Virus record (IMG/VR): IMGVR_UViG_3300033552_000004
Location: 2,415-66,414 of that record
From: a virus
Strand: one strand, 5' to 3'
DNA length: 64,000 nucleotides
Part shown: positions 900-63,906 of the stretch, piece by piece
How positions within the stretch are numbered: the first letter of the stretch is position 1
How the letters are laid out: each line of letters opens with the position of its first letter
The notes under the pieces: model-generated
Told to the model about the DNA's origin: nothing
Databases searched by the model: none
The model's input: the letters and a program-made list of their open reading frames with translations, nothing else
Position numbers and translations under genes: made by a program

Positions 900-1054
900 G
901 ATGTTTAATTCCGGGTTGTTTGTTGCGGTGTCTGAATCTTACGCTTATTTTTGTGCCGAATCTCAATAATGAGAGGTTTTCACGATAAAAACACAATTAA
1001 TTTTACGCACCAATTTGGTGCATCGTTCACCAGGTGCGCGACCCGTGAAAAATT

Positions 1055-1096
1055 GGCTCTAGATAGAGCAACGCTGGAGGCTCTAGATAGAGCAAC
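1055..1096. repeat. two exact 18-bp direct repeats GGCTCTAGATAGAGCAAC
   Basis: 1055-1072 and 1079-1096; each contains the dyad GCTCTA-ga-TAGAGC. Confidence 0.85.
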
Positions 1097-1267
1097 AATT
1101 AATTTTCGTTTTCCCTGCATCAGGCTCGATATCCCGCATACAATTTGAAAATGCAAATTAATTTGTAGAATCTATCGTGGGCGTTTGTTTTGAATCCTGC
1201 ATGGCTTGGCCCGTGCAGTAGCGCCGCCGCATTGCCTAGGGCAAAATTGACGGAATCGATGGATTTT

Positions 1268-1312
1268 CTGATAAATCTGATAAATCCGGTGAATTCGATA
1301 AATCTGATAAAT
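1268..1312. repeat. five tandem 9-bp repeats (consensus CTGATAAAT)
   Basis: CTGATAAAT CTGATAAAT CCGGTGAAT TCGATAAAT CTGATAAAT in non-coding DNA. Confidence 0.85.
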
Positions 1313-1381
1313 TGTCAGTTGTGTAGGTGCTGTCCTACAAATGTAAGCATATGTTACAGAAGGCCGAAATCTGTAACAAAG

Positions 1382-1450
1382 TGTGTTTTACGACCGATTT
1401 GGGGTGGGGCAGGGCTGGCCTGCTATATAGAGCAATCTGCTTTTAATTTT
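1382..1450. repeat. G-rich non-coding element A, copy 1
   Basis: TGTGTTTTACGAnnGATTTGGGG...GGGGCAGGGC...TATATAG...CTGCTTTnAATTTT shared with 7212-7282. Confidence 0.75.
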
Positions 1451-1778
1451 ATTTTTGGCTGCAAATTCTCCCTGGCACGTGCTGGCGGCATTGTCGTCAG
1501 TAGCTCCAGCGTGGGTTCAGCAGCTGGGCACAGCATTTTATTGCCCAAAGCATTGCACAGCACAAACACGCTTTAATGGCGGCTTCATGGCACTTGCAGG
1601 AGGTGCGGAGGCGCTGAACATCGTCAGTAGTGTGCTACCCCTCAGACATTGCGTTGAGGGTTTGTACAGCCGCAGGGATGACGCCAGACATAATAGCAGC
1701 CTGGTGTTGTCATGCTCACCAGAACGGACTAAGGGCGCTTCAAAGCGCCCTAATTAGCTGGTGTGAAGTGGTGTGGCT

Positions 1779-2111
1779 TTATTCCGTCAGCTCCTTAAGC
1801 TCAAGCTCTGCAGCTGCACGATCAAGGTGAATAAGGATATCGGTGTTGTGCAGGATGTCATGTACATAGATGACCTCAGCGGCGCACCAGGCCTCCTCTT
1901 CAGTGTCATACTCTTGAACGACTACTTGAGGCCCAGCCCATGTCGCCCACTTAGCCAGTGCCCAGCGAGTGCCCGTAGTGGTGACGTAGTAGCGACGACC
2001 GACGCCGTCAGGGCGGGTTGTCTCTGCGATGAAGCGGCTGTAGTCGCCGAGTGTGCCATCAACGACAGCGCCGTCGATCACTACAAAGCATGGGGTTTTG
2101 AGAGGGGTCAT
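1779..2111 (-). CDS. hypothetical protein
   Basis: 110-aa ORF with AGGA RBS and upstream TACACT -10. Confidence 0.65.
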   Translation of the reverse strand: MTPLKTPCFVVIDGAVVDGTLGDYSRFIAETTRPDGVGRRYYVTTTGTRWALAKWATWAGPQVVVQEYDTEEEAWCAAEVIYVHDILHNTDILIHLDRAAAELELKELTE

Positions 2112-2326
2112 TTTAAATTCCTAGTTGATGATTATTTAAGTGTACACCATCTGACAGCGTAGTGGTGAACATTTCATGCACACAGCGCACAATTTGCCCA
2201 GCAGTATTGCGCCAGATGTGTGACAACCCTGCGCCACACATGGCGCAGGCTCCCCGTCATTGCCCTCAGCTTGCCTTCGATTCTCGCTGCACCTGGTAGC
2301 ACAATGTGCCCAAAGAAGACCTGAAA

Positions 2327-2377
2327 ATCTGGCATTTGATCTTGAAAATCGCGGACTCGATTTCAAAAAGTTGGAGG
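2327..2377. repeat. non-coding element B, copy 1 (dyad TTGAAAATC...GATTTCAA)
   Basis: About 50-bp match to 8162-8213. Confidence 0.75.
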
Positions 2378-2393
2378 CTCTGCCGAAAAGGTG

Positions 2394-2543
2394 CTAGAGC
2401 CTGCTGGCCCATTCAAGCGCCAGAATCAGTGGGCCCGACGTTTTAGGGTCTGCTTTGGCATCCGCAAAGATTGCCTTGCGCTGCGCCTCAGTTGCCGTGA
2501 TGTAGTGGCACAAGATTGTTTTCTCGTATGATAGCAGCCTCAT
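2394..2543 (-). CDS. small hypothetical protein (49 aa)
   Basis: MRLLSYEKTILCHY...; ATGA overlap with the upstream stop. Confidence 0.45.
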   Translation of the reverse strand: MRLLSYEKTILCHYITATEAQRKAIFADAKADPKTSGPLILALEWASRL

Positions 2544-2920
2544 TTTGTCACCTTAAAGGGTTTGTCCCACTTTCCGATGTCGATGTAGACATGGTGCCCA
2601 ACATCAAAGTAGTCAGATTGCGAGTCTGAGCGGTTGTGGTTGTTGTGGTTAAGTGCCGCGTGAATTTTATTGAACACTTCTAACAGCTCGCCTGAGTATG
2701 CTTTATCCAACCAGTAGGTGTTAAGGTTCAAGTACCCACGCTTGACGTATTCACCCTCCATGTCCTGCACAAGATCAATCAAATCAATTGGTGCGCTGTA
2801 GATGGTCATCACAATGCCGCTGTGATGCTGCACAGCAAGGCTGTACTTCCAGCCTTCAGGTACGACAAGCTTTAGCAGATTGGCAATGATTGTCTTTTTT
2901 TCTTGATTCATGTAGGCCAT
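2540..2920 (-). CDS. conserved phage hypothetical protein
   Basis: MAYMNQEKK start and C-terminal SD.QSDYFDVG..V.I.IGKWDKPF motif, which recurs in phage early proteins. Confidence 0.75.
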   Translation of the reverse strand: MAYMNQEKKTIIANLLKLVVPEGWKYSLAVQHHSGIVMTIYSAPIDLIDLVQDMEGEYVKRGYLNLNTYWLDKAYSGELLEVFNKIHAALNHNNHNRSDSQSDYFDVGHHVYIDIGKWDKPFKVTK

Positions 2921-2937
2921 GATGGTCTTTCTAGGTT

Positions 2938-3153
2938 TTAGAGGGGATTGTTAATGCGGTAGGCGACCATTTTTCCACGCTGGTAGCAGTCTGACCAGTC
3001 CAGCAGGGTGCAGGGCTTGCCGTCAAAGCCTTTCTGCCATGATGAACGTGCGCGACCGGTGCTGTAGGGATTGAGGTCAACACCGTTATCTTTGTGGTTC
3101 TGGATGTCTTTTTCGATTGAGCAAACCAGTGTAAGGTAGGGCTTTGTGGTCAT
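2938..3153 (-). CDS. hypothetical protein
   Basis: 71-aa ORF downstream of a promoter/leader motif. Confidence 0.6.
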   Translation of the reverse strand: MTTKPYLTLVCSIEKDIQNHKDNGVDLNPYSTGRARSSWQKGFDGKPCTLLDWSDCYQRGKMVAYRINNPL

Positions 3154-3235
3154 AATATTTCTCAGGTTTATTTATTGCGATGGTGAATCATACACTACTT
3201 TTAAAATAGATTCCCATTACTGGGAAAGTATTTTA

Positions 3236-3253
3236 AAAGCCCGCGCGGGCTTT
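3236..3253 (-). terminator. intrinsic terminator
   Basis: AAAGCCC-GCGC-GGGCTTT hairpin directly after the stop of 3257-3469, with a U-tract on the minus strand. Confidence 0.7.
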
Positions 3254-3256
3254 GCT

Positions 3257-3469
3257 TTAGCTTTTCAGCTTCCTTGCCGTAAATTCTGGCACTACACTGC
3301 GCGTGAAGATGCTGCCATCTTCGTTGATCGTGCCGACAAGCTCAGCTTCGTAATCACGAAATTTGAGCCACTCCGACTCGACAATAGCAACGGCCATTGC
3401 GCGAGTGTTTGCAATAACCTCGCACTCGCTGGTGCACTCGCTCGAAACTTCCCACTTGATTTTTGCCAT
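3257..3469 (-). CDS. hypothetical protein
   Basis: 70 aa, AGGA RBS, TATACT -10 upstream. Confidence 0.6.
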   Translation of the reverse strand: MAKIKWEVSSECTSECEVIANTRAMAVAIVESEWLKFRDYEAELVGTINEDGSIFTRSVVPEFTARKLKS

Positions 3470-3531
3470 TTCAGTTCCTGGTTGTTGATTACGAAAGTAT
3501 ACACCCGTTTACCAGGTGCGCCACTATTATC

Positions 3532-3759
3532 TCAAAATTCCTTCAAGTCACTCCGAGACATATACGGGTGAGGGGTCAGCAGAGTTGGTTTCCAAGCTGC
3601 CGGGTCGTCCAGTCGGACAATAGCACGCCCGCCAGCGTCTTTAGATGAGACTCTGTCAGCATTCAACTTGTCGCTGAACCATTCAAAGCCTGTGATTGTG
3701 CCAACACCCATAGGGGTGATGACACGCTGACCGATTAAATACTCAGCCGGTGCGGGCAT
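3532..3759 (-). CDS. hypothetical protein (SH3/KOW-like start IGQRVITPMGVGTI)
   Basis: 75-aa ORF within a minus-strand gene run. Confidence 0.55.
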   Translation of the reverse strand: MPAPAEYLIGQRVITPMGVGTITGFEWFSDKLNADRVSSKDAGGRAIVRLDDPAAWKPTLLTPHPYMSRSDLKEF

Positions 3760-3764
3760 AGCTG

Positions 3765-3992
3765 CTAAAACGCTTCAATGGTTGCGGAGCTATTGACGGT
3801 GTCAACAACCTGTTTGGCCTCGTACAGACCCAGCCCATACTGTGAGCGGATGAATTTGATCATGTTGATCTTTTGCTCGGGGAACCGCAAGATGAGTTCG
3901 TACTCAGCCTGCGTGATCGTCTGCTCGACGGTCTTGGCAGGGTAGTGGACAACAATGCTGTTGTCGAAGGTGTTTTTGCTTACTCTAGACAT
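3765..3992 (-). CDS. ribosomal protein bL12 (L7/L12) C-terminal-domain-like protein
   Basis: KINMIKFIRSQYGLGLYEAKQVVD matches the bL12 KI.VIK.VR..TGLGLKEAK..V motif; AAGGAG RBS before ATG 3992. Confidence 0.7.
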   Translation of the reverse strand: MSRVSKNTFDNSIVVHYPAKTVEQTITQAEYELILRFPEQKINMIKFIRSQYGLGLYEAKQVVDTVNSSATIEAF

Positions 3993-4002
3993 TTTTGTCT
4001 CC

Positions 4003-4269
4003 TTAATTAACGAACAATTCAACACCGCCAGTGCGGATGCTCTGGATAGTGTCCATGTTGACGTTGCGATAGTTGCGGGCCTGCATGTCAAAGATTGTCA
4101 GGTACTCGCTCAAACCCGCGACAGTGGGCGCAGCGCCCGTCTTTGACGCAATGTTCATGCGGCCATTCAGGCGGCGAACGCTTCCGTCTTTCTTGACAAA
4201 GGTGAGGCCAACGAATTTGTTGTTGGCAGTGCGGATGATTGACTTGAGGGTAGCGCGGGTTGTAACCAT
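4003..4269 (-). CDS. WYL_2/DUF2693-like SH3-fold protein
   Basis: F.KKDGS.R...G, Y...FD.....YR motifs. Confidence 0.6.
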   Translation of the reverse strand: MVTTRATLKSIIRTANNKFVGLTFVKKDGSVRRLNGRMNIASKTGAAPTVAGLSEYLTIFDMQARNYRNVNMDTIQSIRTGGVELFVN

Positions 4270-4367
4270 GATTTTCTTTCAGAGATTTTGTTACGATGAC
4301 TTATTGTAGTGGAATTTTATTCAAATTCCCACTAATGAGAGATTTAATTTTTAGTCAGTTTTCTTGA

Positions 4368-4568
4368 CTATACCAACCTAAAATCGTTCAGCGGAATAAA
4401 TTCCCAAGGAGTAGTGACCAGAGTCCCTGCGTCGATCAGCGCAACCAGCGTTGCAACGCTTGCGCCCAGGCGCAGCATCGTCCATGCCTTATCATGCACA
4501 GTGCCATCAATCTTGCCAGCGACTCTTACCTCTACTTGAGCCATCTTTGATACTGTCGAGAGTGCCAT
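4368..4568 (-). CDS. hypothetical protein
   Basis: 66 aa, own promoter (TGcTAACAT) and leader motif. Confidence 0.6.
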   Translation of the reverse strand: MALSTVSKMAQVEVRVAGKIDGTVHDKAWTMLRLGASVATLVALIDAGTLVTTPWEFIPLNDFRLV

Positions 4569-4650
4569 GTCGTTCTCTTCTGTTTGTTGCGATGCATTGA
4601 TGTTAGCACATCAATTCGGCAATTCCCAGTAATGAGAGGAAAAATAAAAT

Positions 4651-5055
4651 TTACTTTGCAACCCAGTAGCCCATGACGCGGCAGCGCGGTTTAGCTAGTG
4701 CAGGGCACAAATCGTGCTGCAAACCGTCGATCAGGGCGAATACGTGACCGCGTACGTTGACGATAAACGTACCAACAGGGTGCGCCGTAATGAAAGCTGC
4801 AACGGTTGGCAGATCACGCTTGTACACAGATGTGCGGTGATGCTCGCCAACGTACTTATCGTACGCTGCTACAAGCGGCTTATGCATCACACCTTTGCCA
4901 GCCTTACGGCCATGCGCTTTAAGATGGCTGTGTGCCTCTGCATAGGGAATTTTTGCAGCAAGCGCCAGCGCACGTACAGTGCAATCGTTGCGCTCATAAA
5001 AGTAGCCGCTGGAAATCCTGCCAGAATCTGTAGTAACCAGTTGGTGTTTTGCCAT
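4651..5055 (-). CDS. papain/C39-like Cys-His fold phage protein
   Basis: NDCTVRALA ... V.V.GH.FA.IDG. Confidence 0.6.
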   Translation of the reverse strand: MAKHQLVTTDSGRISSGYFYERNDCTVRALALAAKIPYAEAHSHLKAHGRKAGKGVMHKPLVAAYDKYVGEHHRTSVYKRDLPTVAAFITAHPVGTFIVNVRGHVFALIDGLQHDLCPALAKPRCRVMGYWVAK

Positions 5056-5178
5056 TTTCTTCTCAATTGTTTGTTGCGATGATCAGAGTATACATGAGTT
5101 ACAACACTACTTGACGATGCCCCTATATTTAAGAGCCTTGAGCCAGTATTTTTGGCTTTGCGCGTCCATTCTCAATTT

Positions 5179-5397
5179 TCAGAAGTCAAGCTTCCCCGAA
5201 AACCTCACAAGAAAGTCCACAGCTTGCTCTACTGTAGAGCCTGAGTGTTGTGCAATTTTCTCCCCGTGTTCATACAGCGTGGCCGTGTACTGCAGACCCT
5301 TACCAATGCCATATCCGGGGTCTACGCTAACTGTCAGGCGTATTTCCATATTTGCAGCCATCATTTTAACGGCTGTGTCTTCTTTTAATACTGTCAT
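5179..5397 (-). CDS. hypothetical protein
   Basis: Likely start at MTVLKED (ATG 5397). Confidence 0.5.
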   Translation of the reverse strand: MTVLKEDTAVKMMAANMEIRLTVSVDPGYGIGKGLQYTATLYEHGEKIAQHSGSTVEQAVDFLVRFSGKLDF

Positions 5398-5443
5398 GTT
5401 GTGGCCTGTAGTGGTTTGGTTGTTTGAAGCTTGAATTCTAGCA

Positions 5444-5692
5444 TTACTCTTTGATCTGCACAACCGTTTTGCTGTTGACGTAGTGCGTATTTTTCCAGCC
5501 GAAATTCTTGCGGTAGGCATTCGGCACGTACTCTCCCGTCGTGTCCTTGACGTAACCTGGGGCCACATGCTCCAGCACAGCATCAGCTGCGCCCCTGACG
5601 ATGTGTGTGGCCCTGCCGTAGCCAGCTGCCTTGGCAATGGCATTGGCGGTCTTTTGGTAAGCTTTGACGTGTGCGTCGAGAGTATTGGTCAT
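5444..5692 (-). CDS. hypothetical protein
   Basis: 82 aa; TATACT -10 plus CACCGCAACAAAC leader. Confidence 0.65.
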   Translation of the reverse strand: MTNTLDAHVKAYQKTANAIAKAAGYGRATHIVRGAADAVLEHVAPGYVKDTTGEYVPNAYRKNFGWKNTHYVNSKTVVQIKE

Positions 5693-5765
5693 TTGAAAAT
5701 TCCGGTTTGTTTGTTGCGGTGATTAAGTATAAGCGGAAATTCTCTGTTTTCCGCTTGTTTCAAAA

Positions 5766-6032: not shown

Positions 6033-6189
6033 TTCGGCTCTTTCAGAGTTGTTTAATTGTCTGAGAGAATTCTATCACGCCTGTATTCCCAGTAATGGGA
6101 ATCTTGCTCTTTATTTGCGCCAGTGAGCTTTCAGGGGTCGATGGAAAACGCTTTACACATAGGCCATTTTGGCCCATGCAGAAAGTTCT

Positions 6190-6425: not shown

Positions 6426-6584
6426 TTAGGCTGTTTGAAAAAATCTTTCTTCTCTTTCTTCTTTTGTCTCGCTTACCGCACTCATCCAGCGTCGGCAATT
6501 GCCACGGTCTAAGCTTGAGAATTGGACGATGCCGACGGAGTTGATTACCTGGTAGAGCTTACCTGTTTTTACGATAGTGTACAA
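6426..6584 (-). CDS. small hypothetical protein (52 aa), paralog of 1-150
   Basis: TTG start with AAGGAG RBS; MYTIVKTGKLYQVINSVGIVQFSSLDRGNCRRWMS... Confidence 0.65.
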   Translation of the reverse strand: MYTIVKTGKLYQVINSVGIVQFSSLDRGNCRRWMSAVSETKEEREERFFQTA

Positions 6585-6903: not shown

Positions 6904-7211
6904 GGAGTGGCTCCGAGTTGTTTTGAGCCTCAATGTTAGCACGACAAACCTGGTGCAATCCCAGTAATGAGAGATTATTTTAAATATTTGCTAATCACTA
7001 GGGCAGCGCACTAATAGGAATGCATTGCGGGAACGCTTCCCGCTCACCAGGTGCGCCGGAAAATTTATTTTTCATTCACCGCACGGACGGCAGCAATCCA
7101 GGTGTACAATCGAAAAATGCAACGGGATTTGTAGGCCGCTGCCTGCGCGTCTGTTTTTAAATTCCGATCATGTCGGGGTCGAGCCGATGCATGGGTTTCC
7201 GGGCCGAAGGT

Positions 7212-7365: not shown

Positions 7366-7869
7366 TTAAGGAAAAGCCTTCAGCATCTCATCAGCCGCCT
7401 GCCACTGCTTGAAACCCATACCGTCATAAACATCACACCTGACAAGAGAGTCTTGTACAGGCCGCATGTCTGCCATGTCGTCCAGCACAACGAAGTTGTT
7501 GAAGCGATCAATGTTGTTTTCAATCCAGTGCTGTATCTCACGGCCACGGTCTGATGTCTTTCCGTCCTCGTCGCTGTAAACCCAACTCCGAGTCTTCCAC
7601 CAAACATGGTTTTGCCAGATGTAGTCGCCCAAGTTAGGACACGCAGCGTTCAGTATAGCTTCCATAGCATCCTTGGCAAACATGTCCCGCCACATGCTGC
7701 TCATCACAATCTTTGCGTTGTTTTCCTCACACAATCGACTGACAAGCATACACGCCACTGGGTCGAGATAAGATTGAATACCAGTGCTCCTCATGCCTGT
7801 GCAGGCGCGGGGTGTGCACAAAACGCCGTCGATGTCCAAGAATATTACGTTGGGCAGGGTTTCACTCAC
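7366..7869 (-). CDS. HAD-family phosphatase (Swiss-army-knife RNA-repair type)
   Basis: IFLDIDGVL, IVMSSMWR, RGREI..W, FVVLDD motifs. Confidence 0.8.
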   Translation of the reverse strand: MSETLPNVIFLDIDGVLCTPRACTGMRSTGIQSYLDPVACMLVSRLCEENNAKIVMSSMWRDMFAKDAMEAILNAACPNLGDYIWQNHVWWKTRSWVYSDEDGKTSDRGREIQHWIENNIDRFNNFVVLDDMADMRPVQDSLVRCDVYDGMGFKQWQAADEMLKAFP

Positions 7870-8218: not shown

Positions 8219-8707
8219 TCAAATATCAGGAACCTTTAGTGATTCTTCAATAGCCGCAAGCAACAACGCCTTGGCATCGTATTTACCTGTGGATTCCAAT
8301 ATCACAGCCAACGCTGCCCATAAGGGCAGCTTCGCATTCATATCTAAGAAGCTCGCCAGGGGCGTGCCTACAGCTTCTACAATATCCGCATTTTGCATTT
8401 TAGCTTTCCTAAGCATTGTACGTAAGCGTGACGCAGTGGCCGGTTCAAGACTGTGCGGCGCTCGTAGACCTGCCGCACGGATGATACTGCGCATGAACTT
8501 CTCGTCAACGAAGTCTTGGCGCGTATCAAGCGTTGCCCATTGGGCAATCTTAGCCTGTCGGCTGGCTACGCCAGCCTCCCTCTGCTCAGCTGTAAATATT
8601 CTAGGCCCAAAGCCTGTCTTTTGTATGGTGTTTTCCTCTTCAAAACTGTCTTCATCGCAGACCGGCAGTGTACCTGCTTCAGGCTCATTAATGAGAGTAT
8701 TGCTCAT
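8219..8707 (-). CDS. hypothetical protein
   Basis: 162 aa, GAGGAGG RBS. Confidence 0.7.
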   Translation of the reverse strand: MSNTLINEPEAGTLPVCDEDSFEEENTIQKTGFGPRIFTAEQREAGVASRQAKIAQWATLDTRQDFVDEKFMRSIIRAAGLRAPHSLEPATASRLRTMLRKAKMQNADIVEAVGTPLASFLDMNAKLPLWAALAVILESTGKYDAKALLLAAIEESLKVPDI

Positions 8708-8725: not shown

Positions 8726-8935
8726 TTATTGGTTTTCAGTGCTGTAGGGCTTCAACCGCTCCACAGCGTACGTGTCCAGCCACATCCTCACATAGCCTGG
8801 CACATACTCAGGCGATGCCATTGCACCGGCCCAAGCCTGCTCAAGCTCCGTGCCCTGTTCAGGCACAGGAAACATGTCTCGAATCTCGGCAAGCAGGCCA
8901 CCGATTTCGCCCATTGAAATGTCGTCTTCGCTCAT
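8726..8935 (-). CDS. hypothetical protein
   Basis: 69 aa, ATGA-coupled to mazG. Confidence 0.55.
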   Translation of the reverse strand: MSEDDISMGEIGGLLAEIRDMFPVPEQGTELEQAWAGAMASPEYVPGYVRMWLDTYAVERLKPYSTENQ

Positions 8936-9294
8936 GGCGTGCCCACCTTGTCTGCACGTTCCTGTGCTGATGTATCGCTGTACTTCAAGCCAGCATAGCG
9001 GACACTCAGCTTTGCAATATTCCCGTCAATCGTCTCGTCACGGGTGATGTTCAATATCTGGCGAATTCGCTCCATGTAGAATTCCAAGTCGCCAAGCTCC
9101 TCTACGACGTTGGCACGGTCAATCGGTTTGCGGTAAATCACAGCCTTCTTCACTGCATCCAGAAGCTCACCCGCCTCGCCAGCAACACCTACGGCGACAT
9201 GCAACAGGTCTGCGTCCTCCGCAGTGAGCGATGCACGAATGGCTTCTCCAGATTTTACGAGTGCTGCTACCATTTCGCCGTAATTAATTCTCAT
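8932..9294 (-). CDS. mazG: MazG-like nucleotide pyrophosphohydrolase
   Basis: GVAGEAGELLDAVKK...EELGDLEFY...NIAKL..RY; likely ATG 9294. Confidence 0.85.
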   Translation of the reverse strand: MRINYGEMVAALVKSGEAIRASLTAEDADLLHVAVGVAGEAGELLDAVKKAVIYRKPIDRANVVEELGDLEFYMERIRQILNITRDETIDGNIAKLSVRYAGLKYSDTSAQERADKVGTP

Positions 9295-9353
9295 GTTTAC
9301 CTTTAAAGTTACTGATGTGCCCATTGTACACCATGTGCTCTCAATAATGGGAA

Positions 9354-9719
9354 TCATTCGGCCAGGGTTGCGTAGTTCCACCCAACAAAGTCCTTTTCAG
9401 TGTGCGAGGTGCACCCGTGGCTCCAACCATACACCTTACCGTTCTCATATTTGGCAAAGTGACGGGGTATTCGGCTGTGGGACTCGTCATCCCGTACAAA
9501 AATCTTCGCATCGACTGCTACGTCGTGCCAAAGGCTGTATTCGACGAGGTCGTGCTCGTCGGGTCTACCGCTGTGAAGTCGCCCACAACTGGTGTAGGTC
9601 AGCACATCCCCTGCAACAACTGCGACCACCGGGCAGTAGTCGCCCTTATCTGTGCAAAGGATTCGCACAGGCAAGCCGCTGCGCGTCTTGTAAGTTTTAC
9701 CCATTTCAATTTTTTCCAT
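9354..9719 (-). CDS. hypothetical protein
   Basis: GK.YKTR.G..VRILCTD phage domain; AGGAG RBS. Confidence 0.7.
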   Translation of the reverse strand: MEKIEMGKTYKTRSGLPVRILCTDKGDYCPVVAVVAGDVLTYTSCGRLHSGRPDEHDLVEYSLWHDVAVDAKIFVRDDESHSRIPRHFAKYENGKVYGWSHGCTSHTEKDFVGWNYATLAE

Positions 9720-11024: not shown

Positions 11025-11053
11025 TTGACAGTGGCACCCTGCCGACGTATAGT
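11025..11053 (+). promoter_or_regulatory. near-consensus sigma70 promoter of the RepL-like gene
   Basis: TTGACA-17 bp-TATAGT; -35 is part of the dyad TGTCAA-N8-TTGACA. Confidence 0.8.
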
Positions 11054-11085
11054 TGGCACTCAGACTAACAAAACAAGGAGTAGAT

Positions 11086-11640
11086 ATGACCGACACCGGA
11101 CAAATTCAGGCTTTTGGTGAGCGTAATGGCCTGCCATACTACAAAACAAACCCATCAATTCCGGCTAGTGGCATGGTTCCGTCTCGCACAAGAACGACTC
11201 AGATTGCTAGGGGCGGCAAGGCTGTCGTGGTAAACGCCACAGGGGAGGTGCTTGGGAAGGCCTCTATCGCATTCATGCAAAGCGAGGAGGTAGACCAGGC
11301 TAAGTTTGTCAAACTCTACATGGACGGATTGCGGCAGATAGCTGGCCTGTCTAAGGCGGGGATTGCTGTGTGTGAGATTGTGTACGAACAGATGCAGGAG
11401 AAGGTCAACAACGACCACATCATTCTCAGTTACTCCTTGGCTAAAGAACTCGGAATCTCTGAGCGCACATACCGTCGCGGCGTAAGGGACTTGCTGGAAA
11501 AAGAGGTAATCTTCGCCAGCCCTGCGGAGGGAATGTTTTTCTTGAACATCCAGTACATGTTCAACGGTAACAGGTTACACTTCGTTAAGTCCTATCACAA
11601 GGCGGCAATGGTACTGGGAATTGAGGAAGGTGATAAGTAG
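11086..11640 (+). CDS. RepL-like plasmid replication protein (winged HTH)
   Basis: VD...FVKLY..G....LS, ELGIS.RTY.RG...L.EK..I, FFLN...FNG.R; AAGGAG RBS. Confidence 0.7.
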   Translation: MTDTGQIQAFGERNGLPYYKTNPSIPASGMVPSRTRTTQIARGGKAVVVNATGEVLGKASIAFMQSEEVDQAKFVKLYMDGLRQIAGLSKAGIAVCEIVYEQMQEKVNNDHIILSYSLAKELGISERTYRRGVRDLLEKEVIFASPAEGMFFLNIQYMFNGNRLHFVKSYHKAAMVLGIEEGDK

Positions 11641-11784
11641 CGCCGGGTTGGAGTTCAGGTTTGAGGCTGACCCGCAGGCCAGCTTTGAACTGTAGACAGC
11701 AGCTTTGTGAGCAGAAAAATAAAAATAACTTCTCATTAATTAGAAACGTGCTACACTTTGTGCATCAACAACAAGGAGAGAATT

Positions 11785-15993: not shown

Positions 15994-15994
15994 C

Positions 15995-17586: not shown

Positions 17587-18021
17587 ATGAAGACGACGAT
17601 TGATACCATTAATGAGATTTTTGGGAAGCGGAAGGTGACCGACGACGCAGCACCAAAGATCAAAGCCATCTCATGCAAAGATGGTGTTAGCTTGTCAGTG
17701 CAAGCCAGCCGCAAGCACAATTGCTTCCCGCGCACAAACAAGGGCCCGTATGTGAGCGTTGAGGTGGGGTTTCCAACGATTGCACCGCCTCAGTCTTGGG
17801 CACCTTTCTGCAAGGGCGACTTCGACAAGAAGCCTTGCGACACAGTGTACTTCAATGTGCCATTGAAGATGGTAGCTGACTTTGTGGACACACATGGCGG
17901 CGTCAAGGCAGAGGAAGCACCAAAGATGGTGCTTCCAGCTGCTCCAGCACTTGTCCACCGCCCAGCCCTGGCTCAACGCCGATACAACCTGACGGTTGAA
18001 GACTTAGGGTTTAGACTTTGA
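17587..18021 (+). CDS. conserved phage hypothetical protein
   Basis: C.DG.SLSVQAS..H.C.PR...GPY.SVEVGFP. Confidence 0.75.
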   Translation: MKTTIDTINEIFGKRKVTDDAAPKIKAISCKDGVSLSVQASRKHNCFPRTNKGPYVSVEVGFPTIAPPQSWAPFCKGDFDKKPCDTVYFNVPLKMVADFVDTHGGVKAEEAPKMVLPAAPALVHRPALAQRRYNLTVEDLGFRL

Positions 18022-18266
18022 CGACTGCATACACTGCCGGTAAGTCCTACGCCACTGGAGAGACGCGCTGGCTTTACCCCCAAGACGAGGAGCCACCAAA
18101 AGGCCAGAAGCTGCACATCCTTAACGAAGGTGGCGTTAGCATTCAAGGACTGTGGAAAGAAGACCAGGGTTTTATGGCGTTTCAGCGCATGTTTAAGCGC
18201 GACCACGCCAAGGAAGCAGAGTATAATACGTTCTTACTAATGAGAAAGAAAGCAGGCAAGGTATGA
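18018..18266 (+). CDS. hypothetical protein
   Basis: Overlap-coupled ORF. Confidence 0.55.
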   Translation: MTTAYTAGKSYATGETRWLYPQDEEPPKGQKLHILNEGGVSIQGLWKEDQGFMAFQRMFKRDHAKEAEYNTFLLMRKKAGKV

Positions 18267-20853: not shown

Positions 20854-20919
20854 GTCATCAGTAGCCGTGCTACAATCACGGCTGCAAATCTCATTAATGG
20901 GAAACACACAAGGAGAACT

Positions 20920-23221: not shown

Positions 23222-23237
23222 CTTCTCATTAATAAGA

Positions 23238-24887: not shown

Positions 24888-24900
24888 CTTGAGGACTATA

Positions 24901-25583: not shown

Positions 25584-25657
25584 CTAAAATTAATTCTCAT
25601 TAATAAGAATCTGGTGTACACTTCGTACATCGCAACCAACCAACCGGGAACAACAAA

Positions 25658-27223
25658 ATGACACGTACACCAACCCCACAGCAAGGCTCTTGCATCGAAG
25701 CTATCAAGACTCACCGCATGATTAAGGTTGAGGCTTGCGCCGGAAGTGGCAAGACCAGCACACTGGACATGATGGCACAGGCTACGCCTGTGGCGTCCCT
25801 GTACCTTGGCTTTAACAAAGTCACTGCGACTGAGGCATCTGAAAAGTTTCCAAAGCACGTTACCTGCAAGACTACTCACTCAGTGGCGTACGCAGCTTTT
25901 GGTAGCAAAATACGTGACAAACTCTCCCGTCCGAAGGGACGTTACGTCAACGTGGCAGGCACTGGCTCTGAGGTTGGCAAGTTTTACAAACTCTCGTCAA
26001 TTGAGTTGTCCAAGGACGTCACCGTGTCATCTGCTTACCTTGGCCTGCTTGCGAAGCAAGCTGTGGCCCTGTTTGAGCAGTCATCCGACGACACGCTCAC
26101 GAAGCGCCACCTCCCACGCGGAGAGCTTTTCGACCTTGCAAAGAAGTCTCTGGCAAACATGGATTACACAGAGTCCGTTATTCTTGGCACTGCTCAATCT
26201 ATGTGGAATGACCGCAGCAATGCCCGTAGCCTAGTGTTGGCTACTCACGACACATACTTGAAGATGTACCAGCTGTCTAAGCCCGTGCTGGCAGGGTACG
26301 ATGTGCTGTACGTCGATGAGTTTCAAGACACCACACCTTGCGTGTTGGACATTGTGATGAACCAGTGCAGCCACATGAAGGTTGTGATGGTAGGTGATGC
26401 TCGTCAAGCCATCTACGGCTGGCGAGGCGCTGTCAACGCTATGCAACTGGTGAAGTGCGAGTCCCGCCAGCTGACGAAAAGTTTCCGCTACGGGCAGCGC
26501 ATTGCAGATGTCGCAACGCACGTTTTGGAAGGCGCAATGGTCATTGAAGGCAATTCAAACATCACCTCTGTTGCAGAGTTTGATTGCGTCAATCGTAGTC
26601 TGCCTTACACCCGGCTGTTTCGGACAAATTCTGGCCTGCTGACAGCAGCTGTGCTGGAGATTCAGCAGGGCACCAAAGTAGCTATTGAAGTTGACGTCAA
26701 GGATTTCGTTAAGCTGATGCAAAGTGCCGTGGCGCTGTCAACTGGTGACAGCAAGAACGTCAAGCATGACAAGCTGCTGCCATACAAGGACTGGGCCGAC
26801 ATGGTGCTTGAGGCCAAGCATGATGCAGAGCTTGGACGTATTGTCAAGGTTGTGAAGGACGGCAAGGTGTCGCAATGGATTGAGGTGCTTTCTGGACATC
26901 TCAATAGTGAGACGCCTGCGGTGACGTTCACCACTGCTCATAAGAGCAAAGGCAGGGAGTTCTCGCAAGTGGTGATTGAAGATGACTTCAAGACCTGTTA
27001 CAATGATGATGGTGAGTGGACGGGCCTGACTGAAGACGAGCAGAATTTGCTGTACGTGGCTGTGACCCGCGCTATCGACAAGCTGGAGTACAACCAGACA
27101 GTTTCTGAGTACCTTGAGCGGGCGCAGAGCCGTGAACGCGAGGTCGGTTTTAATCTGTATGGTGAAGGTGCAAGGGGCTTGATGCGAGATATGCGCGTGG
27201 CAGCACAGGGCGAGTACGCATGA
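25658..27223 (+). CDS. SF1 (UvrD/Rep-like) DNA helicase
   Basis: ACAGSGKT, VDEFQD, VGD..QAIY.WRGA, SFR, T.HKSKG.E, LLYVA.TRA. Confidence 0.92.
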   Translation: MTRTPTPQQGSCIEAIKTHRMIKVEACAGSGKTSTLDMMAQATPVASLYLGFNKVTATEASEKFPKHVTCKTTHSVAYAAFGSKIRDKLSRPKGRYVNVAGTGSEVGKFYKLSSIELSKDVTVSSAYLGLLAKQAVALFEQSSDDTLTKRHLPRGELFDLAKKSLANMDYTESVILGTAQSMWNDRSNARSLVLATHDTYLKMYQLSKPVLAGYDVLYVDEFQDTTPCVLDIVMNQCSHMKVVMVGDARQAIYGWRGAVNAMQLVKCESRQLTKSFRYGQRIADVATHVLEGAMVIEGNSNITSVAEFDCVNRSLPYTRLFRTNSGLLTAAVLEIQQGTKVAIEVDVKDFVKLMQSAVALSTGDSKNVKHDKLLPYKDWADMVLEAKHDAELGRIVKVVKDGKVSQWIEVLSGHLNSETPAVTFTTAHKSKGREFSQVVIEDDFKTCYNDDGEWTGLTEDEQNLLYVAVTRAIDKLEYNQTVSEYLERAQSREREVGFNLYGEGARGLMRDMRVAAQGEYA

Positions 27224-29939: not shown

Positions 29940-30111
29940 GTTCTCATTATTAAGAAAAGGAATTTATGCTTTATTTTTGCATTTATGTTTTGGTTGTTTC
30001 GGCATGTCAGTTTGTGGCAAGCGTCCCTGCCGCCAGTGGGCCTACGATTGGGCAGTGCGTGAGCCTCGCTACCGCAACCTACGCACTGCTAATGATTATT
30101 GGCGCTACTAA

Positions 30112-30297
30112 GTGAGAGTGTGGACAAAAGTAGTCTACGCGTGTGACTGCCCAACCTGCGAGTGCTGCGGTGAGCCTGTCTGTGTAGCGTGTGACACGCA
30201 CTACGCAGACTGCGACTGCCCAGGCCCAACGCAAGACGGGTATGACTACAGGCTTAGAAGGGGCGTACTAGAAGCGGCCCTGCAAGACGATGACTGA
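30112..30297 (+). CDS. small Cys-rich protein
   Basis: Multiple CxxC motifs, CDCPGPTQD. Confidence 0.55.
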   Translation: MRVWTKVVYACDCPTCECCGEPVCVACDTHYADCDCPGPTQDGYDYRLRRGVLEAALQDDD

Positions 30298-30652
30298 TGT
30301 TATCCGGCACGGCAAACCCTCAAACGCCTACAAGGCAACTTTGCGAAAGCCTCAGACAGAAGATTTCGATAAATTAGTGAAAGCTTGCATGGCAGCTATC
30401 ATTAATGATGAGGTTGATGTTATAATCTCGTTTGCATACACGATGAAGTTTCCAGACAAATTTCCGAAAGGAATTTGCATGAGCAAGAAGCCAGACGGCA
30501 GCAATGTCCACAAGGTGAAGGCTAAGAGACTTTTGATGTGGCTGTACGAGAACGGCTACACAGCCGCTACGGTGGAAATGCTTGGTGTGCAGAAAAGAGC
30601 TTTCGCCGCGATGGAAAAAGAATTTCAACTTTCTCCCATTAATGAGAAATGA
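30290..30652 (+). CDS. hypothetical protein
   Basis: 120-aa ORF. Confidence 0.65.
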   Translation: MTDVIRHGKPSNAYKATLRKPQTEDFDKLVKACMAAIINDEVDVIISFAYTMKFPDKFPKGICMSKKPDGSNVHKVKAKRLLMWLYENGYTAATVEMLGVQKRAFAAMEKEFQLSPINEK

Positions 30653-33725: not shown

Positions 33726-33749
33726 TTCTCATTAATAAGAACTAGATAT

Positions 33750-33781: not shown

Positions 33782-33798
33782 GATTGAGAAGGAGAATT

Positions 33799-35880: not shown

Positions 35881-36209
35881 CATTACCTGACAAATTTAAA
35901 TTCACCACTTACGGCGACACATATACTGCTGAGCGCCATGAGTCTGAAGCGCACTACGTCATTTCGTGGGTGAGCTACAATGGTGTACAACATACCAACT
36001 ACGCCACAGAGGTAGTGGCAAGGCGCATCAAGTTAGGGGACTGGCAAATCCTTGCCGAGTCATTTCCTGACATTTACGGCTCATGCGTCAAAATCTGTAA
36101 TCTTATTATTGAGAAGAGAGTCGCAGGAGTAAGCCCAACCGACGACGAGGTCGCTGCACTGATTATTACCCGCACCCTTATTAACCGGCTACTTGATGAC
36201 CGCAACTAA
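35877..36209 (+). CDS. hypothetical protein
   Basis: AAGGAG RBS, ATGA overlap. Confidence 0.6.
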   Translation: MTLPDKFKFTTYGDTYTAERHESEAHYVISWVSYNGVQHTNYATEVVARRIKLGDWQILAESFPDIYGSCVKICNLIIEKRVAGVSPTDDEVAALIITRTLINRLLDDRN

Positions 36210-36732: not shown

Positions 36733-37045
36733 TAAAGCAAAAAAGAAGTTGCCGAAATACGTAATGGACGAGTATCAAACGCTCTTCCGGGTGAAAAGGG
36801 TTGGAGACTGTGTAAAGTTCTCACAGCTCGACTCAAAGGCTAGTATTACGACATACGCAGAAGACTTCGACATGGTGCTGGCGCGTGGTGGCTTTCACGA
36901 ACTACCCCCTCCCATTGAAAAGATACTTGACCAGCACCCCGGTCAAGAACAGAAATTCATGCATAGCATAGTCGCATGTTACAAGCAAAGCCTTCTCACT
37001 AATGGGAATACGCAATCACAAAAGGAGACTACAAATGGGAATTGA
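36725..37045 (+). CDS. hypothetical protein
   Basis: AAGGAG RBS. Confidence 0.6.
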   Translation: MADKAKKKLPKYVMDEYQTLFRVKRVGDCVKFSQLDSKASITTYAEDFDMVLARGGFHELPPPIEKILDQHPGQEQKFMHSIVACYKQSLLTNGNTQSQKETTNGN

Positions 37046-37957: not shown

Positions 37958-38215
37958 ATGATGAACTTACAGATTGGCGTAGCTAATATGCCAATTAACC
38001 TGATACTTCTCACTAATGGGACTTTGGCATTTGTCCGTACCGACAACTTTAAGGCGCTGTTTGATATGTCACCGTCGCCTGACGGAGTGGGCGCAGCGTT
38101 CTACGAGGACTCGTTTGAAATAGGCGGGGAGGGCTTCGCCTACAACACCACGTATGCGTACAAAGAGATTCCAGCAATGGGGCAATGGTTGCGGCAGCAG
38201 GAGATAAAACTATGA
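37958..38215 (+). CDS. hypothetical protein
   Basis: AGGAGG RBS. Confidence 0.55.
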   Translation: MMNLQIGVANMPINLILLTNGTLAFVRTDNFKALFDMSPSPDGVGAAFYEDSFEIGGEGFAYNTTYAYKEIPAMGQWLRQQEIKL

Positions 38216-40823: not shown

Positions 40824-41719
40824 GTGGTGAAATTGGGCTTTGCAGCCTTGCAGCAATTGCAGCGAACGTGCCAGATGACAAATATGAGCAAGTAGCCTAC
40901 TACACGCTCTTGTCAATTGACAATGTTATTGATATAATGGATTACCCATTTCCGCAATTAAAACACACCGCGCAAGCGCGGCGTAGCACAGGGGTCGGCA
41001 TTACCAACTTGGCGTATGACATGGCCGTTCGCGGCTTGAAATACACTTCGCTGGAAGGCAAGCAGCACATTCACCGGCTTGCCGAAAGGCACAGCTACTG
41101 GCTGCACAAGGCATCGTTGAGGCTTGCCAAGGAGCGTGGGAACGCTCCTTGGATACACAAGACCAAGTATGTTGACGGCTGGTTGCCAATTGACACGGCT
41201 AACAAGGAGATTGACAAGGTTGTGCAACAGCCTTTGATGTTCGACTGGGAAGCGTTGAGGGCAGAGATTAAGGAGCAGGGAGGGATAAGGAACAGTGTGC
41301 TTGAGGCTGTCATGCCGTGCGAAAGCAGCAGCATTGCCTCATACCACACCAACGGCCCATACCCAATCCGCGACTTGAAGGTCATTAAGACCAGTGGCAA
41401 CAACAAGAACTTGTTCCTTGCACCTGAAATGGAGAAGCTGAAAGGTGCTTACCAGTTGGCCTGGGACATTCCTACGAAGGATATGGTTGAGGTGTATGCT
41501 ATCATCCAGAAGTTCACGGGGCAGGCAATCAGTGCCGACTTTTACATCAAGTATGATAGTGACAACCGTCAGGTCGGGACGAAGCAGATGTTGCAGGACT
41601 TCCTACTAATGAGAAAACTGGGCATGAAGAGCCGGTACTACATCAACAGTCGCACAAGGGCTGAGGCTGAAGTGCCGTACGAAGAAGAGGCACCCGACTG
41701 CGACAGTTGTAGTCTGTAA
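40820..41719 (+). CDS. nrdA: class Ia ribonucleotide reductase alpha subunit, C-terminal part
   Basis: AAGGAG RBS plus ATGA overlap; GEIGLC, G.RNS...MP..SSS, YY pair, C-terminal CDSC. Confidence 0.88.
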   Translation: MSGEIGLCSLAAIAANVPDDKYEQVAYYTLLSIDNVIDIMDYPFPQLKHTAQARRSTGVGITNLAYDMAVRGLKYTSLEGKQHIHRLAERHSYWLHKASLRLAKERGNAPWIHKTKYVDGWLPIDTANKEIDKVVQQPLMFDWEALRAEIKEQGGIRNSVLEAVMPCESSSIASYHTNGPYPIRDLKVIKTSGNNKNLFLAPEMEKLKGAYQLAWDIPTKDMVEVYAIIQKFTGQAISADFYIKYDSDNRQVGTKQMLQDFLLMRKLGMKSRYYINSRTRAEAEVPYEEEAPDCDSCSL

Positions 41720-42847: not shown

Positions 42848-43150
42848 TCTCAATAATGAGAAGGAGAACTATGACAGTTGATGAAAAGTGGGATTTCTTG
42901 TGCATGAAGCACGACGAGTTCCTGGCGCGGGGTGACAGTTACCTCACAGCCTACGCTCTGGCGCAGGATGAACTGAAGGCAGAAGTAACGCGGAGGGCTG
43001 CAGAATTAACGACAACGAAGTAGCATACTACCGCGAACACATGCTGCATCACTACCTTGCCTGTGGGTATTCTGTGTGGGATGCAGAAGACATGGCCCAC
43101 AGGGCTGCTGAAGAGCAGCGTGAAGCTCACGAATACGAGGCGCTGCCCAC

Positions 43151-47389: not shown

Positions 47390-47400
47390 GATTACTCTCC

Positions 47401-53301: not shown

Positions 53302-53883
53302 CTACCAAACGATAGCCTCCACTTCTGCGATTGTTGTGGCTGCTGCCAGTTGTGCCTTTAGGGCTTGTGAGCGGGCAAAGTTGGCTGAACCTTGTGCTAC
53401 CATTGCCTTGTAGAACAGAGTCCATGCAGCTACGTCGGATATGCCGACGTAGGTGTTGTCAACGGCCTTCCAGCCACCGACCCAACCGTCAGGCATCCCA
53501 TTAGTGAGAGTGACGATTCCGTGCACGACGTCGATGTCGCTGCGAGACAAACCATCAACAGCGATTTGCTTACCGGAGTAAATAAAGTGAGACTGATTGG
53601 CGCGGAGCCTTTCAGAATTTATTTCAGCGTACTTGGAAGTTTTAAGGTCTACAAGTGTTCTGGGGTCTAGCCACTGTTTTGTACTGTAGTCAAAGTTGTG
53701 ATTATCAGACAGCTTAGGGGGAAAAGCGACCAGAGAGCCGTTATGAACGTAGTGAGTCAACCCTACAAAATCAGGCACATCTAGCTGTAGCTGACTGACC
53801 CCCTCTTCAGGAGTGAAAGCAACCTTAGCCGTCTTCAGTATTCTGCCTGTAGTGGTTTCGTAGCAAACGTATCCATTTGTCAT
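53302..53883 (-). CDS. DUF4376-like tail-fibre assembly protein
   Basis: FDY..KQW, WKA.DN, LK..L.AA.T..EV.AI.W. Confidence 0.75.
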   Translation of the reverse strand: MTNGYVCYETTTGRILKTAKVAFTPEEGVSQLQLDVPDFVGLTHYVHNGSLVAFPPKLSDNHNFDYSTKQWLDPRTLVDLKTSKYAEINSERLRANQSHFIYSGKQIAVDGLSRSDIDVVHGIVTLTNGMPDGWVGGWKAVDNTYVGISDVAAWTLFYKAMVAQGSANFARSQALKAQLAAATTIAEVEAIVW

Positions 53884-62946: not shown

Positions 62947-62959
62947 CTGAAATATCCTT

Positions 62960-63427
62960 TTATTCGTTCTCTATTTTTCTCTTGAAGTTTGCAAATGCAT
63001 TCTTCAACTTAGCTGCAACCATTTCACGGTCTGCAATCAATGCCTCGTCTACGTGTGTGTAGGGTGCTGGAGCGTCTATCTTTGTAGCTGTACTTAGTTC
63101 TCCCGCATACACTTCGCTCATGTTCTTAATGGTTAACTTTTCCCAAGTTGAAAGGTGGAGTTGCGTAACACGAAGCCAACTCTCAATCTCAGACCACGAC
63201 AATGCATTGACACCCATCCCGTTACTCTGCACAAGCCCTGCTTCAAACAAAAGCGTGATCAGGTATTCAGCACCGTCAAGATTAGGGAGGTTCAAAAACG
63301 ACGAATTCTCGTCCAAGTCCTTATAAGACTTGAGACGAGATTTCTTTGCACCTTCTGGCACGGCGTGTAGCCAGGCCAGTTGTCTAAGATATAGTGACAG
63401 TGATTCTGTTACGCCGAGAGAAAATTT
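62960..63427 (-). CDS. tail assembly chaperone GT (-1 frameshift extension)
   Basis: -1 frame from the slippery site is open and continues into ORF 62960-63361 (LSW.EI..W...L..WE). Confidence 0.75.
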   Translation of the reverse strand, partial: KFSLGVTESLSLYLRQLAWLHAVPEGAKKSRLKSYKDLDENSSFLNLPNLDGAEYLITLLFEAGLVQSNGMGVNALSWSEIESWLRVTQLHLSTWEKLTIKNMSEVYAGELSTATKIDAPAPYTHVDEALIADREMVAAKLKNAFANFKRKIENE

Positions 63428-63801
63428 GAAACGTCGCCCAGACCTGCGTCTACTTGGTCTTTGAGCCAGCTAAATTTTGCATCGCCGTACAGGGCGCGGA
63501 AAGTGTCGTCATCGCCCACTGGCTTGCCGCCGTAGCTGATGTTGTTAGCTTTTGCAGAGCAAGCGACGAGCAGTTCGATGCCTTCTTCTTTCATAACTTC
63601 GGCACTGGCTTGCTTCTTGCCACGCTTCAGCGCACGGTTTTGCATAGCTGTAATAGCATTGCGGTACTCTTTGGAACTAGTGCCGTGCAGGACAATCTCA
63701 ACTGGCTTACCGTCTTCGGTGAACAGGAGTTCATCGGAGACAGGGTGACGCAGTTGCAGGGATACGATGTCCTTGAGGGACAGGGAGTCGAGATTAAACA
63801 T
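63409..63801 (-). CDS. tail assembly chaperone G
   Basis: LRHP...L, G..S, W...QV...SNF; lies between the tail tube and TMP genes. Confidence 0.82.
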   Translation of the reverse strand: MFNLDSLSLKDIVSLQLRHPVSDELLFTEDGKPVEIVLHGTSSKEYRNAITAMQNRALKRGKKQASAEVMKEEGIELLVACSAKANNISYGGKPVGDDDTFRALYGDAKFSWLKDQVDAGLGDVSNFLSA

Positions 63802-63860
63802 ATATTTGGCTCACTTTCTTGGTAGGATTAACAGGTTGCTCTCTTCGGAGCTATAATGAA

Positions 63861-63885
63861 GAAAGGCTCCACTGTGGAGCCTTTC
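63861..63885 (-). terminator. hairpin terminator after the tail tube gene
   Basis: GAAAGGCTCCA-CTG-TGGAGCCTTTC (plus-strand reading). Confidence 0.7.
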
Positions 63886-63906
63886 GGTTTATCTCATTAT
63901 TGAGAC

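Follow-up and report, generated by a model that had tools for sequence, protein, structure and literature searches.

A conserved palindrome dispersed through the genomes of uncultivated phages as a candidate operator network at transcription-unit borders

Introduction

What reads a short palindrome that recurs more than twenty times in one phage genome, and to what effect? The question is raised by a 64,000-nucleotide stretch of viral DNA, hereafter the window, which covers positions 2415-66414 of the IMG/VR record IMGVR_UViG_3300033552_000004. The whole record (G000; 66,414 bp) is estimated to be 78% complete, and the sequence occurs as contigs in one DNA run, from an ice metagenome, with no RNA run listed as containing it. 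A first-pass annotation made from the letters alone had listed the 14-bp palindrome TCYYANTANTRRGA at 22 positions and proposed a dimeric protein bound to duplex DNA throughout the genome. The enrichment of the palindrome is real, and it is a stronger finding than first stated since the motif is conserved across a clade. To our knowledge, dispersed operator networks are well worked out in few phages only, such as L5 and P1, which are temperate, and the network described here is comparable, conserved across a clade known only from metagenomes, without a cultured relative of its tail module and without a recognisable repressor gene. We propose, with the chances about evenly balanced, that the copies are operators for one dimeric sequence-specific DNA-binding regulator at transcription-unit borders.

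Abundance and distribution of the palindrome

An exact scan of the window returned 22 copies of TCYYANTANTRRGA at the 22 coordinates previously listed, while the mean in 100 dinucleotide-preserving shuffles was 0.04 (maximum 1) and none of the 100 reached 22. With one mismatch allowed, 25 copies were found against 1.08 expected, and because the only additional sites were those at 8683, 11731 and 17604, the motif is sharply defined. The full record holds 23 copies, the 23rd lying just outside the window, and no copy of the reversed control pattern. The site sets used below are the exact window sites (n = 22), those together with the one-mismatch sites (n = 25) and the sites of the whole record (n = 23).

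The window opens with small minus-strand early genes (1-10.2 kb), continues with plus-strand genes for replication and nucleotide metabolism (10.5-43.9 kb) and closes with minus-strand lysis and tail genes (44-64 kb). The exact copies are spread unevenly rather than genome-wide: the early genes (1-10.4 kb) account for 7, those for replication and nucleotide metabolism (10.4-43.9 kb) for 13, and the 20 kb of tail genes for 2, which leaves the late region poor in copies. The copies do not have the make-up of intrinsic terminators, a GC-rich stem with a T run: a terminator scan of the window picked up only those at 3212 and 6087, and most have no T run. The window gave no Rfam family match at the gathering score.

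Conservation in related phages

The replication genes are distant kin of those of Pseudomonas phages from the Otagovirus, Pakpunavirus and Flaumdravirus groups, the primase-helicase being 50% identical to its homologue in phage ventosus. No close DNA relative was found in the phage collection searched, and no cultured relative of the tail module was found. The exact window pattern is absent from seven relatives (G001-G007) and from five isolates, and occurs once in G008. Once the four central bases were freed, the core tTCTCA-N4-TGAGAa was seen across the relatives, and this motif core belongs to a whole clade of uncultivated phages. The carriers have genomes of about 82-88 kb and span 41-60% GC. 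Counts of TCTCA-N4-TGAGA over whole records were 16 in G012, 12 in G013, 10 each in G009 and G014, 8 in G010, 7 in G004, 4 each in G006 and G015, 3 in G021 and 2 in G017, with single copies in G011, G016 and G018, none in G019, G020 and G022, and 0-1 for the reversed controls. For G004 and G006, 0.085 copies were expected in each and at most 2 were seen in 200 shuffles. In a de novo scan TCTCA-N4 was the top gapped palindrome, against 0.02-0.1 expected, in G009, G012, G013 and G014, the four near-complete carriers (CheckV 96-100%); the same kind of scan revealed no substitute palindrome in motif-less relatives. The core has no copy in G008 or in the cultured Pseudomonas phages ventosus, LPS-5, KIL1 and RP14.

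A search with a tail-protein alignment yielded 50 related loci, of which 15 have exact copies, all at 50% identity or more, and the more distant loci among the 50 have none. In a tree of 42 tail-protein rows, from which best matches shorter than 350 aa (G013, G014 and G016 included) and duplicates were left out, the eight rows with an exact copy at their own locus, the window's among them, sit in one group of ten (SH-aLRT 89). The motif needs two changes on this tree against 7.5 in shuffles, and none of 500 shuffles was as low. An exact 14-mer scan of IMG/VR gave at least 114 single chance matches, and among the 130 loci examined no locus other than the window's own had more than one copy.

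Individual sites can be followed between genomes as well. In the nearest relative, G015, which has the NTAN centre too, protein identity is 38-86% and reaches at least 70% in about half of the proteins in common. Of its five sites, four have a syntenic counterpart in the window, and two of these four are intragenic. At these four pairs 52 of 56 motif bases are identical and the four changes stay within the Y, R or N classes, while the flanks agree at 169 of 360 positions. G004 and G006 have a site upstream of the same tail gene, with identical arms and a centre that differs at three of four bases. Six genomes (G000, G004, G006, G009, G012 and G013) have a copy in the intergenic space that follows the upstream neighbour of this tail gene, in the order stop-motif-terminator in G000, G009, G012 and G013, and terminator-motif in G004 and G006. 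In these alignments the arms are conserved while the centre and flanks drift. Conservation in relatives, named by the first-pass annotation as a check on its proposal, is thus seen clade-wide for the arms and by synteny for some sites, with a variable centre.

Position relative to genes and promoters

The sites are biased towards gene boundaries. Across nine genomes, 57 of 89 sites lie outside deep coding sequence against 17.5 expected, as do 16 of the 23 sites of the record and all ten copies in G009. The three contexts described at first pass were all recovered. Copies stand 0-2 nt past the stop codons of core genes (23224, primase-helicase; 29942, polA; 33727, a gene that had been called SSB-like; 42848, nrdB; 63892, tail gene); others are inside coding sequences (26899, UvrD-like helicase; 41601, nrdA; 53496, ORF 53302-53883), with the codon readings LTNG and FLLMR confirmed; and a -10-like element lies 8-20 nt downstream of the copies at 4624, 6959, 9339, 25595 and 30634 and 12 nt upstream of that at 20889. 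Intragenic sites favour the frame nnT-CTC-Ann-nnT-GAG-Ann, which encodes Leu-x-x-Glu.

Oriented by gene direction, 11 of the 25 window sites are 7-29 nt upstream of a TGnTAnAAT-type -10, most of them followed by the leader CATCGCAACAAACA, and by our calculation from predicted -10 elements the site centres cluster near -27 to -31, -37 to -40 and -48. Four window sites have a TAWAAT hexamer exactly 4 nt upstream, and further ones occupy the space that separates a stop codon from the ribosome-binding site or terminator after it. No site accompanies the two strongest canonical promoters (10163 and 11025), which means that the motif marks another class of promoter. We rejected the reading of the motif as a promoter element itself, as its spacing to the -10 varies between 7 and 29 nt and a -10 is missing from the neighbourhood of most sites in the clade.

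The promoters concerned form a family with an extended -10, TGnTAnAAT, and the CA-rich leader starting about 6-7 nt past it. Its members are located at 941-5731 (minus strand), 11731-11790 and 25617-25660, and two of them, with -10s near 5092 and 5731, are without the palindrome. In G013 (66759 and 68847) and G012 (72769) a start codon falls within the motif (TCTC-ATG-AGT-GAG-A); among the genes concerned is a conserved 59-aa gene that is located past the primase-helicase in G004.

Symmetry and recognition as DNA or RNA

Oriented by gene direction, the site is two-fold symmetric in its arms and at positions 6 and 9 (hand tally). The arms vary independently: a hand tally over all genomes gave sense-strand T:G combinations 18 times and C:A combinations 13 times, so that pairing in a transcript is not kept by wobble or compensatory changes. 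Among the asymmetric window sites, nine have a G-U pair on the sense strand, six a C-A mismatch and one both (hand tally), and no strand preference was seen in the window. Mean folding energies were -3.12 kcal/mol for the sense strand, -2.86 kcal/mol for the antisense strand and -1.64 kcal/mol for random 20-mers, with 11 of 22 copies reaching -3. Because folding is weak and equal on both strands, and C-A combinations occur besides G-U, we favour the reading of duplex DNA by a symmetric protein.

The competing view, which we regard as unlikely though the strongest of the rivals, is that each copy acts in RNA as a short stem-loop (5-9 bp stem, 4-nt loop) at cistron boundaries of polycistronic messages, where an RNA-binding or RNA-cutting protein would set processing, stability or translation of the next gene. 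It accounts well for promoter-free copies between a stop codon and a ribosome-binding site or before a terminator, found in the window at 42848, 29942, 20889, 33727 and 63892 and elsewhere in G021 (30563, 40926), G013 (3611) and G004 (16274, 21042), and for a stem that is constant among relatives while the loop varies; three copies also abut tRNA genes (no tRNA gene was found in the window itself). The AT-rich G009 is its best case, as its ten intergenic copies have arms extended to 9 bp, reach -4.7 to -5.6 kcal/mol and have a loop that is UAAA or, on the sense strand, A-rich in eight of nine asymmetric cases, which hints at strand dependence; these A-rich loops may, however, mirror a general excess of A on the sense strand. 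A stem kept for its structure only would covary, whereas the sequence of this one is fixed; in the window the sense-strand stem has a C-A mismatch in 7 of 22 copies and a G-U pair in 9, folding is about as weak on the antisense strand, and 11 copies lie upstream of the promoter of the gene that they precede. The RNA reading is weakened by these observations.

A proposed dimeric regulator and the search for it

As duplex-DNA operators, the copies would be bound by one protein acting as a symmetric dimer, each subunit of which would read one tTCTCA arm, the arms being 4 bp apart; in this phage and G015 the arms allow C or T at two positions and the centre has to contain TA. The sites stand where transcription units start and finish. 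In the early and replication regions many appear to overlap the -35 or the spacer of the promoter family with extended -10 and CA-rich leader, and others are found after a stop codon and ahead of a ribosome-binding site or terminator. Bound protein could then occlude promoters and block read-through, which would shut off early and middle transcription in the manner of Cro or of stoperators. With the opposite sign, the protein could instead activate promoters that have no -35. The enrichment, the symmetry, the arms conserved throughout the clade, the synteny of some sites and the boundary bias are observed, while binding by a protein, its dimeric state and the sign of its effect are inferred.

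The earlier proposal of a dimeric binder of double-stranded DNA fits the symmetry, the independent arms, the lack of strand preference and the conserved arms best, while three of the four proteins that it named as candidates are disfavoured. The RepL-like gene (11053-11640) and the weakly Recombinase-like ORF (24889-25218) are unique to G000, no motif-carrying relative having a homologue of either. The HTH-phosphoesterase is full-length in the motif-less G019 and G020, and in an N-terminal alignment its recognition stretch KSTVSD is identical in the motif-less G011 and G001 and near-identical in G020, so that it was rejected as the binder; its N-terminal HTH was the only recurrent weak HTH match in six-frame scans. 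The fourth candidate, the 'DsbA-like' ORF 43997-44266, has no Pfam match.

Two further families came from the comparison of carriers. The family of G009_5317-5832 was the only one present in all four near-complete carriers and in no non-carrier, and it was rejected because it is absent from G000, which covers the region; its best hit in a PDB profile search had an E value of 0.33, and the Atlas gave nothing usable. A small minus-strand family of 50 aa, with a member at 6429-6584 and a paralogue at about 7-150, also occurs in G004, G006, G013 and G014. Its AF2 model (pLDDT 84.6) has three strands and a helix, and it was dropped as a DNA-binder since Foldseek against the PDB gave a best E value of 0.9 and a wide search with VIA generic matches only (best Z 5.8), leaving a DNA-binding fold unsupported.

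Several results weigh against the operator explanation, to which the strand dependence hinted at by G009 also belongs. Pfam and PHROG scans of about 90 ORFs yielded no repressor family, in agreement with the first-pass statement that no classical repressor is visible in the window. Six-frame scans of eight genomes with HTH_3, GerE, RHH_1, Sigma70_r4 and HTH_17 gave nothing over the cut-offs: HTH_3 (PF01381) passed in none of the eight, the best match being a 107-aa ORF in G014 only with 20.8 bits, and neither did GerE (PF00196). No gene was found whose presence tracks the motif across carriers and non-carriers, and no host regulon was found in the 151 bacterial genomes sampled, which may not include the host. 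On the side of the sites, 32 of 89 are deep inside ORFs (71.5 expected; nine genomes), and, in the comparison of the window with G004, intragenic sites lack conservation. Where the sites stand with respect to promoters varies, with centres by our calculation from about -26 to -61 and some overlapping the start site. A strict extended -10 at 7-13 nt downstream was found at 6 of 180 site-orientations in the clade against 0.44% in controls, a 7-8-fold enrichment that is nonetheless rare, so the motif is not a core promoter element. Several sites are in promoter-free spots, and for copies such as that at 42848, between stop codon and ribosome-binding site, a role in RNA would be more natural.

As to the binder, the phage may encode it as a novel or rapidly evolving protein, or the host may supply it. 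More specifically, though with doubt outweighing confidence, we can imagine that a phage or host protein of no recognisable DNA-binding family reads a 16-bp palindrome which phages of about 85 kb throughout the clade place at transcription-unit borders, and that the sites together work as a roadblock or insulator on the scale of the genome, setting the timing of early and middle expression. If the binder exists, it would represent a new DNA-binding family or a hijacked host factor.

A host transcription factor is an improbable binder in our view. In this scenario the phage would make early and middle promoters depend on a host regulator, or would titrate that regulator. The motif geometry resembles the layout of NarL-type 7-2-7 and FNR-type 5-N4-5 sites. 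Neither a phage gene that tracks the motif nor a DNA-binding family common to the carriers was found; five early promoters have a site in place of the -35 box, 18-20 nt from the -10, and such promoters have to work before phage proteins exist. Networks of host-factor sites on phage genomes have been published for CtrA (PMC9437464). On the other hand, since the carriers span a wide GC range, several hosts are suggested, all of which would need the same factor specificity, and the shifted centre and arm rules of this phage and G015 are easier to explain by a co-evolving phage protein. In the 151 genomes, taken from the class of Massilia, the 16-bp form was found 23 times against 10 for the control, with at most two copies per genome. 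Four copies of the motif were counted in a Massilia genome.

A DNA site outside transcription, be it for nicking as in T5-like phages, a hotspot for recombination or module exchange, or a replication or packaging signal read by a phage nuclease, is very improbable, as nicks in both strands of a symmetric site would amount to a break in the genome, the late region is depleted (2 sites in 20 kb of the window), no HNH gene distribution tracks the motif, and ten conserved bases with a free centre offer poor homology for recombination, even though the window encodes three HNH-like proteins, two of them just downstream of the sites at 33727 and 36101, the sites mark module boundaries, and intragenic copies are also enriched, so that promoters alone do not explain the site set.

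The motif is also of practical use. It marks clade membership, shows where transcription units begin or end in genomes of which about 70% is otherwise without annotation, and provides a defined 16-bp probe for finding the binder.

Individual sites and neighbouring genes

In the minus-strand early block, distances are given in gene direction. The exact copy at 961..974, TCTCAATAATGAGA, is 19 nt upstream of a TAAGAT -10 with a CA-rich leader, followed by a GP88-family gene (150-899). At 3212..3225 (exact) the order is a terminator hairpin (3236-3253), the motif, 19 nt and a TATGAT -10 with the leader CATCGCAATAAA. The exact copies at 4327..4340 and 4624..4637 are each 18 nt upstream of a -10, the first of the TACAAT of a minus-strand early promoter and the second of the extended -10 TGCTAACAT with the leader CATCGCAACAAACA. 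The next two, also exact, lie 12 nt upstream of TGATAGAAT (6087..6100) and 20 nt upstream of TGCTAACAT (6959..6972), the latter with a TAAAAT hexamer 4 nt upstream of the motif. The one-mismatch copy at 8683..8696 falls in the first codons of ORF 8219-8707, and the exact copy at 9339..9352 separates ORF 9354-9719 from the MazG-like gene, with TGTACAAT 10 nt downstream.

The first two copies of the replication block have one mismatch each: that at 11731..11744 is past the RepL-like gene and 7 nt upstream of TGCTACACT, and that at 17604..17617 is in the first codons of ORF 17587-18021. All later copies are exact. The copy at 18232..18245 occupies the last codons of ORF 18018-18266, with TATAAT 4 nt upstream and the next start codon 17 nt downstream, and that at 20889..20902 stands between a Thy1-like gene and ORF 20920-21231, with GGAG 9 nt downstream and TACAAT 12 nt upstream. 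The copy 2 nt past the primase-helicase stop (23224..23237) is followed by a terminator-like hairpin and then by a TACAAT promoter. Upstream of the UvrD-like helicase, the copy at 25595..25608 is 8 nt upstream of TGTACACT with the leader CATCGCAACC and syntenic with a site at 10773 in G004, and a second copy within the helicase gene (26899..26912; codons HLNSET) is missing from the G004 orthologue. The copy at 29942..29955 lies 2 nt past the polA stop and 10 nt before the next start codon, and that at 30634..30647, in the final codons of ORF 30290-30652, precedes TGTACAAT by 10 nt. At 33727..33740 the copy comes 1 nt past the stop of a gene for 314 aa (32781-33725) and precedes a strong terminator hairpin (33750-33777). 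The copy at 36101..36114 is within ORF 35877-36209, about 90 nt before an HNH-like gene (36193-36732), and the one at 36994..37007 is 27 nt upstream of the phosphoesterase start codon and syntenic with a G015 site at 23110. Within ORF 37958-38215 the copy at 38008..38021 is read as the codons LLTNGT and is missing at the same place in G004. The nrdA copy (41601..41614; codons FLLMRK) is syntenic with G015 18274 and missing in G004, while the copy at 42848..42861, which fills the gap from the nrdB stop (0 nt) to the next ribosome-binding site (1 nt), is identical and syntenic in G015 (17010).

In the tail block, the copy at 53496..53509 is within ORF 53302-53883 and syntenic with G015 12112, and that at 63892..63905 comes 1 nt past the stop of a tail gene, with a terminator hairpin next and gene 63409-63801 beyond it; in G004, G006, G009, G012 and G013 this intergenic space has a copy as well.

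Some neighbouring genes deserve mention in their own right. The nrdA gene (39480-41719) is split into overlapping ORFs (39480-40823 and 40754-41719), the counterpart in G004 being one ORF of 753 aa; the Pfam matches of the two parts abut (barrel positions 1-220 and 211-523), and the split comes from a frameshift near 40,780-40,823, which may be genuine or a fault of the assembly. The minus-strand early ORF 3765-4091 (108 aa) has a Pfam match to the C-terminal domain of ribosomal protein L7/L12 (E value 1.3e-7) and, judged by this match, looks like a phage-encoded ribosomal protein fragment. Other minus-strand early genes encode the HAD domain of RNA-repair 'Swiss Army Knife' proteins (7366-7869) and a MazG pyrophosphohydrolase domain (8932-9381). 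The three HNH-endonuclease-like genes are at 19269-19847, 33784-34527 and 36193-36732; one has an AP2 DNA-binding domain and two have a motif copy upstream. A relative of the tail protein, 45% identical, is encoded inside a large bacterial contig of Massilia eburnea (232 kb), and a betaproteobacterium thus has prophage-like kin of the tail module.

Other repeats were also seen. Outside the window, at the contig end (1-160 of the record), there are six tandem copies of a 25-bp unit with the hairpin AGCCCC-GTA-GGGGCT, and a further hairpin of this type lies near position 811 of the record. The palindrome TGTTG-N8-CAACA has five copies in unrelated contexts (628, 38282, 40125, 42084 and 48054), which are probably due to chance or ordinary hairpins.

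Comparison with known systems

No description of the motif was found in the open literature searched, a scope with supplementary tables outside it. In form the site itself matches operators of the Cro/CI type, being within 14-17 bp and two-fold symmetric, with conserved arms and a looser centre. Cro/CI operators are likewise two-fold symmetric with conserved outer arms, as in the 14-bp ACAA-N6-TTGT of phage 434, where the central bases matter through DNA shape and not by direct reading and where the operator overlaps early promoters. The lambdoid operators, however, number six in one control region, whereas here 23 sites are dispersed over 66 kb, many far from promoters, and no gene of the Cro/CI type is at hand, as no HTH_3 protein exceeds the cut-off in the eight genomes.

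CtrA boxes in alphaproteobacterial phages resemble the network in their many copies in promoter regions and their conservation across related phages (PMC9437464). In CtrA networks the factor and the host regulon are known, whereas the bacterial genomes sampled here gave no regulon. The nearest cultured relatives by replication genes have a repeated regulatory sequence in the early region, a 41-nt sigma-70 promoter in 2-6 copies, which is not a palindrome (PMC4309531), and the present motif is absent from four cultured Pseudomonas phages. The papers on PAK_P3, KIL and PAK_P1 describe, in their consulted sections, promoters of the sigma-70 type only.

The analogy with L5, raised in the first-pass annotation, is a loose one. 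The L5-type stoperators of Cluster A mycobacteriophages are likewise one short motif present about 20-30 times, mostly in short intergenic spaces, and they are thought to block both initiation and elongation (see also PMC9283540 and PMC6550527). The many dispersed and mostly intergenic copies agree with this picture. L5 stoperators, in contrast, lack symmetry, follow the direction of transcription and are the target of a temperate phage's immunity repressor, which binds as a monomer, whereas the window has a palindrome without orientation bias. The L5 type needs an immunity repressor and a temperate lifestyle; here the scans of about 90 ORFs gave no repressor-like family, and an integrase occurs in one of eight genomes. 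That integrase, a tyrosine integrase of G012 (47066-47649) that adjoins a motif copy, is the only one among the eight related genomes, so that none was found in G000, which is 78% complete, and only one of the four near-complete carriers has any. Because no integrase was found in the other three, the network, if it is the insulator or roadblock imagined above, would be a stoperator-like system outside the temperate actinophages, read by a new kind of binder.

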